This document shows positions 1,249-4,273 of a stretch of 4,273 nucleotides of DNA, piece after piece. How positions within the stretch are numbered: position 1 is the first letter of the stretch; every line of letters begins with the position of its first letter. The notes under the pieces are model-generated. The model did no database searches and was not told the DNA's origin. It saw only the letters and a program-made list of their open reading frames with translations. The stretch lies in IMG/VR virus record IMGVR_UViG_2695420650_000010. One strand, 5' to 3'. Source of the stretch: a virus. Lineage: Duplodnaviria > Heunggongvirae > Uroviricota > Caudoviricetes. The position numbers and the translations under genes were made by a program.

Positions 1249-1285
1249 CAAAATCAATATAAACAGCCCCTCCGGAGAGGGGCTG
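1249..1285 (-). terminator. rho-independent terminator-like hairpin for minus-strand transcripts
   Basis: 9-bp GC-rich stem CAGCCCCTC / GAGGGGCTG (1264-1272 and 1277-1285) with 4-nt loop. On the minus strand it is followed by the U-rich tail TTTATATTGATTTTG; on the plus strand there is no U tract. Confidence 0.5.
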
Positions 1286-1676
1286 GAGAGTGGCGCTATG
1301 TGCCATTGCATGGTGCCGGGTGCCTCCCGGTGAATTCAGTACCAGCACCTGAATCCGCGATTATCCCATATACCTACTCGCTGATTGCCCCTCCGCACAG
1401 GGGGATTCACCATGCCAGTTTCTTTTAACAAACTCCCCGCAAACCAGACAACAGTCAACCGCCTGAATTGTGAAGTATTTAAAAATTTCTCCCGCTAACT
1501 GATACCCGGCTAACAGTCTGGCGTTTTCTTTTTCAGCAACGGGAAAGCAACAACCACCACACCCGCCACCAGCACACCGTCAGCCAGCACTGACATTATC
1601 CGGCTGCTGCAATGCCATTCACAAAAACAGTAAGCAATCACTTTTTACCGTAACAGGTGATAATCCAGATATGTAT

Positions 1677-2030
1677 CTACCCCAGATGAGTAATCCGAAG
1701 TTCATCCATACCACAGGTCCTGGCTATTCTGTTGTACTCCTGAACAAGAGCAAATAATTCTGAATTAGCAACCATGAACTCATCGCAAACCCTCTGTATA
1801 GCATCACTATTCAGAATAATAACGTCTCTTCCCGAAAGACGATCAGGAGTACAGAACAAAACTGTCAAACGGCTGAAGGCCTTTGCTCGTGCTGCATTGA
1901 CTATATCAATACGCTGCCTAAGGATGAAACACCCCGACGCCTCATCAATATTCACTCTACCCACACCATATGAATGATAAATATTTAATGCTGAAAAAAC
2001 CATTAGACCGTATAACAAACACTCAATCAA
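1677..2030 (-). CDS. hypothetical protein (117 aa from TTG at 2030; 108 aa from the first ATG at 2003)
   Basis: Longest ORF in the cargo segment and in late-operon orientation. No convincing Shine-Dalgarno before either start and no recognisable motifs, so confidence is low. Confidence 0.35.
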   Translation of the reverse strand: MIECLLYGLMVFSALNIYHSYGVGRVNIDEASGCFILRQRIDIVNAARAKAFSRLTVLFCTPDRLSGRDVIILNSDAIQRVCDEFMVANSELFALVQEYNRIARTCGMDELRITHLG

Positions 2031-2140
2031 TACTTAACAGAACTTTTATTTTTGACAAACATAAAATATTTTCAACAATATCCTGAGCCAGGTATATTTC
2101 AGTATAAGGCTCTGCCGGAAGGAATCTGGAAGAATGAATA

Positions 2141-2217
2141 TGGCGCGCTGTACTGGATTCGAACCAGTGACCGATTGCTTAGAAGGCAATTGCTCTGTCC
2201 GGCTGAGCTAACAACGC
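2141..2217 (-). tRNA. tRNA-Arg (anticodon UCU), 77 nt with encoded CCA
   Basis: Reverse complement folds as a cloverleaf: acceptor GCGTTGT/ACAGCGC (one G-U pair), D-arm GCTC...GAGC, anticodon stem ATTGC/GCAAT with loop CTTCTAA, T-arm ACTGG-TTCGAAT-CCAGT, discriminator G, CCA. Similar from memory to E. coli argU; likely argN or argO of a lambdoid prophage, but I cannot tell which. Confidence 0.85.
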
Positions 2218-2258: not shown

Positions 2259-2299
2259 NNNNNNNNNNNNNNNNNNNNNNNNNNNNNNNNNNNNNNNNN
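2259..2299. other. assembly gap (run of N) inside the tRNA cluster
   Basis: Contiguous n characters; true gap length unknown. Confidence 0.95.
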
Positions 2300-2367
2300 G
2301 TACTGGATTCGAACCAGTGACCGATTGCTTAGAAGGCAATTGCTCTGTCCGGCTGAGCTAACAACGC
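2300..2367 (-). tRNA. tRNA-Arg (anticodon UCU), second copy, 3' end truncated by the N gap
   Basis: The visible 68 nt are identical to the corresponding part of the tRNA-Arg at 2141-2217, including the anticodon loop. Confidence 0.75.
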
Positions 2368-2467: not shown

Positions 2468-2543
2468 TGGTGGCCCTTGCTGGATTTGAACCAGCGACCT
2501 GGCGATTATGAGTCGCTCGCTCTCACCACTGAGCTAAAGGGCC
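2468..2543 (-). tRNA. ileZ: tRNA-Ile2 (anticodon CAU, lysidine type), 76 nt with encoded CCA
   Basis: Reverse complement GGCCCTTTAGCTCAGTGGTGAGAGCGAGCGACTCATAATCGCCAGGTCGCTGGTTCAAATCCAGCAAGGGCCACCA. Acceptor GGCCCTT/AAGGGCC, anticodon loop CTCATAA, T-loop TTCAAAT. Closely resembles E. coli ileX/ileY as I remember them. The ileZ-argN-argO arrangement is characteristic of lambdoid prophages. Confidence 0.85.
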
Positions 2544-2583: not shown

Positions 2584-3642
2584 TCATCCGTTCTGGCTGA
2601 CTAAATCCTGTACTTCCCGAACCGTCTGCTCAAAACGTTCAGTCTCCAGCTCAACGCCAATTGCACGACGCCCGAGCGCCAGTGCCGCTTTCACTGTCGA
2701 ACCCAACCCCATGAAAAAATCTGCAATCAGGTCACCCGGACGACTGCTAGCGCTGATTATCTGCTGCAGCATTTCTGCCGGTTTTTCGCACGGATGTTTC
2801 CCGGGATAGAACTGCACCGGTTTATGCGTCCACACATCGGTATACGGCACCTGCACCGTCACGCCAAAATACCGCCGCAGATGTTTATATTCACTCAGCA
2901 GCTCCGCATACTGCCGGTTCAGTGAGGTATACGTATCCACCAGCTGGTGGTGGAGCTTTTCCAGTTCACCACGCCGATGCTTCTCTTCTGCCACCCGGGC
3001 AAACAGCGCCTGTAATTTCAGATAATCGCTTTCATTCGGCAACTGCCACTGACCGGCACTGAACCAGTGCGACACCATGTTTTTCTTTCCTGTGGCATCT
3101 GCAATCTGTTTTGCCGTTATCCCCAGGGCAGCTCGCGCATCACGAAAGTAAGAAATCAGCGGGGCCATCACATGCTGTTTCAGTGCACTGCCCTTCGCCG
3201 CATACCCGGCATCTTTCGGACGATACGGCCCCTGATAATGTTCCGCGAACAGAATGCGCTCTGTGGCGGGGAAATACGCCCGCAGGCTTTCCTTGTTGCA
3301 TCCGTTCCAGCGTCCGGACGGCTTCGCCCAGATAATATGGTTCAGCACACTGAAGCGTTCACGCATCATGATTTCGATATCAGATGCCAGGCGATGACCA
3401 CAGAACAGGTAAAGACTTCCGGCAGGTTTCAGCACCCGCCAGAACTGCGCCAGACACTGGTCCAGCCACTTCAGGTAATCATCGTCGCCCTTCCACTGGT
3501 TATCCCAGCCCTCAGGCTTCACTTTAAAGTACGGCGGGTCCGTGACTATCAGGTCAACAGAATTTTCGGGTAACGACCGGATAAATTCCAGGCAGTCGGC
3601 GTTGATTAACTCACAACTGGATATTTTTACAGTATTAAGCAT
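2584..3642 (-). CDS. DNA methyltransferase, beta-class N6-adenine or N4-cytosine (N6_N4_Mtase family), apparently orphan
   Basis: 352-aa ORF, ATG at 3642, TGA at 2584. Motif IV DLIVTDPPYF near the N-terminus; HPCEKP (HPxxKP-type) and AdoMet-binding motif I DFFMGLGST near the C-terminus. That order is typical of beta-class amino-methyltransferases (CcrM, M.HinfI, M.RsrI-like). No endonuclease gene is adjacent in the window. Target site cannot be inferred. Confidence 0.92.
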   Translation of the reverse strand: MLNTVKISSCELINADCLEFIRSLPENSVDLIVTDPPYFKVKPEGWDNQWKGDDDYLKWLDQCLAQFWRVLKPAGSLYLFCGHRLASDIEIMMRERFSVLNHIIWAKPSGRWNGCNKESLRAYFPATERILFAEHYQGPYRPKDAGYAAKGSALKQHVMAPLISYFRDARAALGITAKQIADATGKKNMVSHWFSAGQWQLPNESDYLKLQALFARVAEEKHRRGELEKLHHQLVDTYTSLNRQYAELLSEYKHLRRYFGVTVQVPYTDVWTHKPVQFYPGKHPCEKPAEMLQQIISASSRPGDLIADFFMGLGSTVKAALALGRRAIGVELETERFEQTVREVQDLVSQNG

Positions 3643-3734: not shown

Positions 3735-3774
3735 GGCTGGTGGGTGCCCCTAACACCCACCNCCCCCCCCAGCC
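3735..3774. repeat. inverted repeat GGCTGGTGGGTG / CACCCACC...AGCC interrupted by a poly-C tract (poly-G on the coding strand) containing an ambiguous base
   Basis: Left arm 3735-3746; right arm 3754-3761 plus 3771-3774, split by c-n-cccccccc at 3761-3770. The minus strand is G-tract rich (G8, GGTGGG, GGGG). Confidence 0.6.
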
Positions 3775-3791
3775 GCCCATTTACCACAAAT

Positions 3792-3815
3792 AAAAAAGCC
3801 TTCACTGCGGAAGGC
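3792..3815 (-). terminator. rho-independent terminator-like hairpin overlapping the stop codon of the 65-aa ORF
   Basis: 6-bp stem GCCTTC / GAAGGC (3798-3803 and 3810-3815) with 6-nt loop, followed on the minus strand by TTTTTTATTTG. The stem is short, so moderate confidence. Confidence 0.45.
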
Positions 3816-3999
3816 GTCTGTAACAACCGAACTGATAGTCTGCCAGACCCGCCATAACCAGCTGGGTCAGTATTAACTGGCAGCGTTCGCGTGAAAGGTA
3901 AGTATTCTGCGCTATCTCCCCGACTGTCGCCGGTTCGGTAACGCTTAATTCATTAAACACCACTCTGGCGGTTTCTGTCATATCCTGCTGTTTTAGCAT
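3802..3999 (-). CDS. hypothetical small protein (65 aa), possible helix-turn-helix DNA-binding protein
   Basis: ATG at 3999 preceded by a good Shine-Dalgarno (AAAGGAAAAG, about 6-nt spacer); stop TGA at 3802-3804. The segment TVGEIAQNTYLSRERCQLILTQLVMAGL has an HTH-like pattern. Sits between two terminator-like hairpins, directly upstream of the methyltransferase. Confidence 0.6.
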   Translation of the reverse strand: MLKQQDMTETARVVFNELSVTEPATVGEIAQNTYLSRERCQLILTQLVMAGLADYQFGCYRRLPQ

Positions 4000-4117
4000 G
4001 TCTTTTCCTTTTCCGGTTAACGTGACACACCAATAACTCTTGTCGAAAAAGCCAGCAAGCTGAAAGACAGGTATTCACCGCCACCAGCGCGTTTACTGTA
4101 CTGACGCGATTTCAGTC

Positions 4118-4143
4118 ATAAAAAACCCGCTCGGCGGCGGGTT
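4118..4143 (-). terminator. rho-independent terminator (tR'-like) for minus-strand transcripts
   Basis: Stem CCCGC / GCGGG (4126-4130 and 4137-4141), extendable by two A-T pairs, followed on the minus strand by six U (complement of A 4120-4125). Sits about 45-65 nt downstream of the candidate promoter. Confidence 0.6.
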
Positions 4144-4190
4144 GTAGAAACTCTTCTAACGTCAGGCATAAAACGCCCATCGTTATGACG

Positions 4191-4218
4191 AATTTACCAC
4201 AGATTCCGGAAAAATCAA
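4191..4218 (-). promoter_or_regulatory. candidate late promoter (pR'-like) with extended -10
   Basis: On the minus strand: -35 TTGATT (complement of 4213-4218), 16-nt spacer, TGgTAAATT (complement of 4191-4199). As I remember it, the lambda pR' -10 region is GGGTAAATT with -35 TTGACT. Position between the end of an upstream ORF and a terminator fits pR'/tR' architecture. Confidence 0.45.
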
Positions 4219-4273
4219 CCTTGTTACCTAGTTACCTTTTTTAACTGCCGCTCAGCCCATGCTTCTTCAATAT

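Follow-up and report, generated by a model that had tools for sequence, protein, structure and literature searches.

A conserved small gene at the position of stxA behind prophage tRNAs in Escherichia coli

Shiga toxin, the most consequential cargo of lambdoid phages, is encoded in the slot that follows the ileZ-argN-argO tRNAs, and in the established lambdoid model Q-modified RNA polymerase reads through from pR′. The hallmarks of Shiga toxin A as a ribosome-inactivating protein are an RIP domain (PF00161), a signal peptide and a length of ~315 aa, with the B subunit following. In Stx2a_WGPS2, the gene order is Q ... 65-aa ORF, DNA methyltransferase (MTase), ileZ, argN, argO, stxA, stxB and an esterase gene. 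In P1 (locus L105, 21413-26009), dmt is followed by tRNA-Asn, tRNA-Thr, tciA (TerB-like), tciB (DUF3927), tciC and tRNA-Ile2. Late-operon cargo of lambdoid phages is a class that is already well known, and the cargo that non-toxigenic relatives carry in the stx slot aids the reading of prophage evolution and lysogenic conversion.

What occupies this slot in the DNA studied here? We analysed a stretch of 4,273 nt as a whole (hereafter, the window), for which a preliminary description had singled out an uncharacterised ORF of 117 aa directly behind a tRNA cluster, at the position of stxA in toxin-converting phages. An ORF finder recovers this frame on the minus strand, from a TTG start, at 1677-2030. 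In our analysis, the description of the ORF as uncharacterised cargo in the stx slot, with a composition suggesting separate acquisition, held up; its length and the suspicion that it might be a decayed remnant did not. On balance, we lean toward the view that in 1677..1955 a lambda-like prophage of E. coli carries a cargo gene that starts at GTG 1955 and specifies a soluble, cytoplasmic hairpin of 92 residues, which would be expressed with the late operon and act by binding protein.

The stx slot and its occupant in the window

Read along the minus strand, on which all features named below lie unless stated otherwise, the sequence of the window resembles the beginning of a lambdoid late operon. 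A strong intrinsic terminator, picked up by a terminator scan at 4143..4124 (region 4117-4223), has a sequence common to mEp460 and sits just downstream of Q; it is most likely the tR′ of the late promoter region. A weak Rfam 'Trp_leader' match (E 0.44) at 4117-4223 probably reflects merely this hairpin. Then come a 65-aa ORF of PHROG 331 (3999..3802) and the gene of a 352-aa N6/N4 DNA methyltransferase (3642..2584; PF01555, E 8e-42). In the spacer between the two, a single N at 3762 interrupts a C run (cacccaccNcccccccc), probably a homopolymer base-calling ambiguity.

The tRNA cluster follows. A tRNA with CAU anticodon (2468..2543), labelled 'Met' by ARAGORN, is of the ileZ type (tRNA-Ile2, reading AUA), its homologue being named tRNA-Ile/ileZ by PGAP and in phage records. 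Directly upstream of the ORF lies an argO-type tRNA-Arg with UCU anticodon (2141..2217; ARAGORN; Rfam tRNA, 68 bits), which is identical in Stx2a phages. A second copy of it (2294..2367; Rfam tRNA, 50 bits; direct repeat D2) adjoins a run of Ns: positions 2150-2248 and 2300-2398 flank the run and share 95% identity over 99 nt, and fragments resembling a tRNA 3′ end (…GGTCCCCGATGGCGGTCCA) come after each copy, at 2225-2259 and 2380-2460. Homologous E. coli loci have a single tRNA-Arg and tRNA-Ile2 only.

An AT-rich spacer (2031..2140) separates the last tRNA from the ORF and forms the left boundary of the cargo block. It holds one weak sigma-70-like site (TTGAAA-16-AAAAAT at 2075..2048, 9/12 matches), and its RNA shows no unusual structure (z +1.2). 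The best-supported coding sequence, 92 codons plus TAG, occupies 1677..1955 and is preceded by an in-frame extension at 1956..2030. The gene of a hydrophobic, TciB-like DUF3927 peptide of 43 aa, annotated by PGAP, lies at 1510..1641 (PF13064, E 1.7e-27) and begins 35 nt beyond the ORF stop. A full-length STnc100 sRNA gene comes next (1255..1444; Rfam RF02076, 132 bits, E 5e-30), and its intrinsic terminator at 1285..1264 is the first that the scan places downstream of the ORF on the same strand. On the plus strand, positions 460-1229 encode an IraM-like anti-adaptor (NF007393, E 5e-36; 'anti-adapter protein IraM' in the PGAP annotation of a homologous locus). The gene appears doubled, with an exact duplication of 205 nt (515-719 and 949-1153) flanking N runs, which looks like a masking or scaffolding artefact and not biology. 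Last in the series is a DUF1737 fragment.

How does this layout compare with that of toxin-converting phages? The MTase-ileZ-argN-argO block is ~92% identical to many of the Stx2a-converting phages. In a four-way alignment, the likeness to the Stx2a phage ends within ~20 nt past the 3′ end of the last tRNA, and E. coli strain 64 and phage mEp460 stay colinear with the window beyond this break. Synteny with Stx2a_WGPS2, together with the break in homology at the tRNA, shows that a different cargo block fills the stx slot here and that the ORF is its first protein-coding gene. In agreement with the preliminary description, it directly follows the tRNA cluster in the same orientation, 111 nt downstream of tRNA-Arg(UCU). 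As is typical of lambdoid late-operon cargo, the gene is located downstream of Q/pR′-tR′ and of ileZ-argN-argO, upstream of the lysis cassette, and is co-oriented with them; this placement is seen in homologous loci, where holin and lysin genes lie downstream of the ORF, and in the synteny with both Stx2a_WGPS2 and mEp460. Its composition sets it apart from the flanking phage genes, as in morons: the core has a GC content of 0.44 and a GC3 of 0.41, versus 0.53 and 0.60 in the methyltransferase, which suggests separate acquisition. A moron in the strict sense, as an autonomous transcription unit, would have its own promoter and terminator; here, one weak sigma-70-like site lies upstream, and the nearest terminator downstream is that of STnc100.

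Given its position, Shiga toxin A or another ribosome-inactivating protein was considered as an identity for the ORF and rejected. Pfam returned a sub-threshold RHIM match only and no PF00161, the frame spans just 92-117 aa, and the next gene encodes DUF3927.

A conserved protein-coding gene and its start codon

Protein and HMM searches and the comparison of related loci, both proposed at the outset, returned homologues with a conserved frame. Residues 10-117 of the ORF match positions 1-108 of the PHROG 2873 profile (E 3.8e-70), and the ORF is 97-99% identical to catalogued clusters. A word-indexed search of 5.8 billion proteins yielded 23 clusters, among them another clade from E. coli (53-60% identity). 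A profile search yielded 31 clusters, all of them named 'hypothetical protein', with members in E. coli, Shigella, the Citrobacter freundii complex and Salmonella, and an HMM search, run exhaustively over 1.8 billion representatives, brought up full-length relatives that are 91-95 aa long and 32-41% identical. These sequences fall into seven subfamilies (32-63% identity, all 91-95 aa), and within E. coli we refer to clade A (the window), clade B (locus L008) and clade C (locus L092). We discarded one protein from a Mu-like tail region (P0033, 21% identity), probably a false positive due to coiled coils.

Clades A, B and C align over the 279 nt between GTG and stop with no indel. Counted by codon position, the three clade pairs differ at 24/22/44, 19/21/43 and 24/21/39 sites, with an excess at third positions in each (chi-square p = 0.007, 0.002 and 0.036), and dN/dS amounts to 0.26, 0.22 and 0.32. 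The core is intact in 84/84 clade-A loci, which represent 12 alleles; both amino-acid pattern and length are kept down to 32% identity; and the ORF frame is the only one of the six that is free of stops across the seven subfamilies. By these comparisons, 1677..1955 is a real and conserved protein-coding gene that evolves under purifying selection. The intact loci, the low dN/dS (0.22-0.32) and the distant full-length relatives contradict the earlier suggestion of a decayed remnant.

Where does translation begin? Comparative evidence argues strongly for GTG 1955, which gives 92 aa, and against TTG 2030 (117 aa) or ATG 2003 (108 aa). Amino-acid conservation sets in at the codon aligned with 1955, which in some alleles is an ATG, and upstream of it the clades align only with frame-breaking indels. 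The originally reported length of 117 aa probably does not hold, since the start of the family falls on GTG 1955: all subfamilies align to positions 17-108 of PHROG 2873, the sister family PHROG 4827 comprises 96 positions, and four subfamilies carry in-frame stops upstream of the equivalent codon. In clade B, the extension is frameshifted at L008, with a stop three codons before the GTG, and at L004-L007 the extension has given way to an IS3 element that borders directly on the gene. More than 20 contigs have such an IS3-family element (HTH_Tnp_1 and rve) inserted right in front of the clade-B gene (in L004 at ~3760-5000); the insertion gives rise to a chimeric ORF call of 119 aa, and the 92-aa core is unaffected. 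In clade C, AGGAG stands 4 nt ahead of the corresponding GTG, and Shine-Dalgarno motifs precede an ATG start at L091 (GGGAG), L101 (AAGGGA) and L094 (GAGGGG). In the window, translation signals are weak, as had been noted: the motif before GTG 1955 is degenerate (GTGGGT), and TTG 2030 and ATG 2003 have no Shine-Dalgarno motif before them. The extension has a GC content of 0.31 as compared to 0.44 in the core, and when the full 117 aa are modelled with AlphaFold2, residues 1-25 reach a pLDDT of ~51 versus 88-96 in the core. The 75 nt at 1956..2030 are probably an untranslated leader.

Distribution, neighbourhood and alternative readings

Of 5426 complete E. coli genomes, 1187 (~22%) contain the segment 1600-2140, nearly always at ≥95% identity. 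In all 30 RefSeq complete genomes listed, PGAP annotates over this segment only the DUF3927 gene or nothing at all, and two RefSeq records inspected in detail (L002, L003) contain no gene call for the ORF. The same 30 genomes have an unannotated gap of ~500 bp that reaches from the tRNA to the DUF3927 gene, though the ORF is intact. Some GenBank/RefSeq protein entries do exist, for instance WP_097292279.1. Among 50,697 phage records, a single one, mEp460_ev081, carries the gene, and it is unannotated there too; among the GTDB species representatives, only that of E. coli has it. For pangenome, Ribo-seq and proteomics studies, a gene that occurs in about a fifth of complete E. coli genomes, has no recognised domain and goes unannotated in the RefSeq records listed is a blind spot.

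Across 80 IMG/VR loci, the block of tRNA-Ile2, tRNA-Arg, leader, ORF, DUF3927 and STnc100 is essentially fixed, with DUF3927 linked to the clade-A ORF in 79/80 loci and STnc100 in 76/80, and the variable parts are the methyltransferase (~25 loci) and the IraM-like gene (~49 loci). A 2026 preprint on Pas and STnc100 RNAs (10.64898/2026.05.13.724894), which covers the same region and makes no mention of the ORF, relates STnc100 to the PasD sRNAs found in pathogenic E. coli. Since the STnc100 terminator is the first one downstream of ORF and DUF3927, the sRNA could derive from the 3′ end of their transcript.

Relatives of the gene likewise sit between Q and holin. The order is Q ... MTase, YdeO/GadX-like AraC regulator, ORF, TerB-like gene (PHROG 632), DUF3927 and holin in clade C; Q ... 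tRNA-Thr ... ORF, TerB-like gene, DUF3927 and holin in Citrobacter; and Q, tRNA-Thr and ORF at L091. In clades B and C, the AraC regulator (PHROG 1450; L008 3969-4694, L092 4142-4870) precedes the gene in place of the tRNAs, a neighbour that recalls the acid-resistance regulators borne by prophages. One subfamily, whose 91-aa members are 35% identical to the ORF, is found on Rep3/ParA-SopB plasmids (L098-L100, 6500-8600), preceded by tRNA-Thr(UGU) and 1.2 kb away from a PapB-type regulator and a K88/Pap-like chaperone-usher fimbrial operon. As a tRNA-Thr still precedes it, this arrangement suggests a fragment of a phage late region that was captured by and transplanted to a plasmid, and its location beside a fimbrial operon means that the role of the ORF need not be tied to the late phase of a phage.

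Which other readings would account for this locus? That the frame is spurious or decaying, and that the region acts instead as RNA (a 5′ leader or precursor of the DUF3927 mRNA and STnc100) or encodes the antisense 67-aa ORF at 1774..1977 on the plus strand, would fit with PGAP not calling the gene, with an ORF RNA whose folding is somewhat more stable than that of shuffled versions (z −2.3), and with an antisense frame that shares third positions and has a similar dN/dS. The antisense frame is, however, broken by 2-7 stops in six of the seven subfamilies, neither strand of 1677-2140 contains an Rfam family even at a permissive threshold, a terminator-like hairpin inside the ORF (1841..1823) is not conserved in clade B, and an RNA-level role would sit ill with an amino-acid pattern and length conserved to 32% identity; from the sequence comparisons, we regard this reading as largely refuted and very improbable. 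A longer protein, as taken by the preliminary description and most gene callers (117 aa with TTG 2030 as start, 108 aa with ATG 2003), whose N-terminal 16-25 residues would be functional, hydrophobic and possibly membrane-associating, seems unlikely to us, yet several observations speak for it. The clade-A frame is open to 2030, the PHROG 2873 profile has 108 positions that are matched from residue 10 onward, two clade-B alleles (P0014 and P0015) possess a similar open extension (MIDCIRYSLNVFS...), and AlphaFold2 draws a helix at residues 2-20. Since the frame is open in clade A, gene callers and the PHROG profile use the 108-aa form; against a functional extension stand its loss of frame in L008, its replacement by IS sequence in L004-L007, its absence from four other subfamilies with their in-frame stops, its low GC content and pLDDT, the missing Shine-Dalgarno motifs at 2030 and 2003, and the alleles with ATG at the 1955 position.

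The main rival concerns the neighbours of the gene and not its boundaries. Here, the ORF would be the first gene of a module with the TciB-like DUF3927 membrane peptide, with or without a TerB-like TciA, that acts at the cell envelope and might serve in stress tolerance, in the exclusion of other phages or colicins, or in lysis timing. DUF3927 directly after the ORF in nearly all clade-A loci, the order ORF, TerB-like gene, DUF3927, holin in clade C and in the Citrobacter subfamily, the classification of the TerB-like gene (PHROG 632) as 'tellurite resistance', moron, and the presence of tciA-tciB after the tRNAs of JLK-2012 and P1 are all in line with such a module. It is weakened by P1 and JLK-2012 themselves, both of which have tciA and tciB without the ORF—tblastn with 11 family members found no homologue better than E 0.7 between tRNAs and tciA in either (L105 and L104)—and by clade B, L091, L094 and the plasmid subfamily, which have the ORF without a recognisable DUF3927. 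Moreover, Tci functions are named by homology only. Taken together, we consider a joint envelope module possible but doubtful, and return to the ORF as a cargo gene whose product would act as an independent, protein-binding factor.

The predicted protein and its place among known systems

What might the product do? AlphaFold2, run on six sequences, predicts an antiparallel hairpin of two helices (residues 3-35 and 50-81; pLDDT 85, pTM 0.71), a model that is reproduced with an alignment of 16 sequences. The short beta-turn tip (F-S-R-L-T-V-L-F-C-T-P-D-R) joining the helices carries the most conserved motif, FSRLTVLFCTPDR, and R23, P37, N64, Y74 and N75 are invariant. By sequence, the protein has neither signal peptide nor membrane segment. 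Neither the ORF nor six distant relatives have a Pfam, NCBIfam or PADLOC family, one subfamily member showing a marginal PADLOC match (E 0.009) to the long HEC-06 model; a profile search against PDB sequences gave nothing below E 0.35, Pfam gave no match to PerC (PF06069; PerC/Pch regulators) in the ORF or any subfamily and none to TerB/TciA (PF05099) or DUF3927 (PF13064) in the ORF, and a search of the full-text literature found nothing on it. At the level of sequence, the ORF is unrelated to Shiga toxin, PerC/Pch, Tci proteins and known defence proteins.

With two amphipathic helices and no features of an enzyme, a DNA-binding, a secreted or a membrane protein, protein binding appears the most likely activity. 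We tentatively picture, from the model and with low confidence, a modulator, probably a hairpin dimer or oligomer, that would bind to a protein partner and thereby affect a host or phage process. The gene lies within the late operon and points in the same direction as the methyltransferase, the phage tRNAs, DUF3927, STnc100 and the downstream lysis genes. The terminator scan found no minus-strand terminator between tRNAs, ORF and DUF3927, so that ORF and DUF3927 are probably co-transcribed; as a tR′-like terminator lies upstream, Q-dependent read-through after induction is predicted to transcribe the ORF, as with stx in toxin phages. A weak promoter-like site of its own (2075..2048) may additionally provide some expression in lysogens. 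Of the 92 codons, 8 (8.7%) are AGA, AGG or AUA, those decoded by the adjacent tRNA-Arg(UCU) and tRNA-Ile2, compared to 1.1% in the methyltransferase and 1.1-6.4% in the subfamilies that are not beside these tRNAs. Resting on 8 codons, this link between the gene and the phage tRNAs is suggestive.

More speculatively, and in our view improbably, the hairpin family might be a group of host modulators borne by mobile elements of Enterobacteriaceae, a cargo alternative to Shiga toxin in the same tRNA-flanked slot that, possibly together with DUF3927 or the TerB-like protein, binds and neutralises a host regulator, an envelope factor or a protein of a competing phage. If true, lysogens would gain a selectable phenotype, overlooked because RefSeq usually omits the gene, in about one in five complete E. 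coli genomes. Leaving this aside, the ORF is an ordinary and widespread hypothetical prophage gene, and the finding solid but modest. New are the corrected gene model (92 aa from GTG 1955), the evidence of selection, the confidently predicted fold and the definition of a fixed block from tRNAs through ORF and DUF3927 to STnc100 in which standard annotation usually misses the ORF. With gene model, fold and defined block at hand, a targeted knockout or a screen for interactions becomes straightforward.

Compared to described systems, the family itself was already catalogued: the ORF is a direct member of PHROG 2873, with sister PHROG 4827 and the entries WP_097292279.1 (108 aa) and QDE47237.1 (92 aa), from which it differs only in the likely start codon, and these entries come without function, structure or Pfam domain. 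The structural resemblance to the TraM anti-activator (2q0o), the prefoldin beta subunit (1fxk/2zdi) and the type III secretion protein CdsO is one of shape only; the Foldseek matches are not significant (E ≥ 0.3, 3-16% identity) and of a kind common to thousands of coiled-coil hairpins. Shiga toxin A, whose place the gene takes, is unrelated to it in sequence and fold: the ORF has no RIP domain, signal peptide or B-subunit partner, and its product is predicted to be a helical, cytoplasmic protein of 92 aa. With stxA/stxB and with other lambdoid late-operon cargo (the nanS-p esterase, tciA/tciB and lpxR), it nevertheless shares the slot and the orientation. The dmt-tRNA-tciA-tciB-tciC region of P1 differs in having no homologue of the ORF, its TciC (35 aa) being unrelated, but displays the same modular order of DNA methyltransferase, tRNAs and small accessory genes including DUF3927/TciB. 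This parallel in sequence organisation suggests that a cassette of methylase, tRNAs and small accessory genes is common to P1-like and lambdoid phages.
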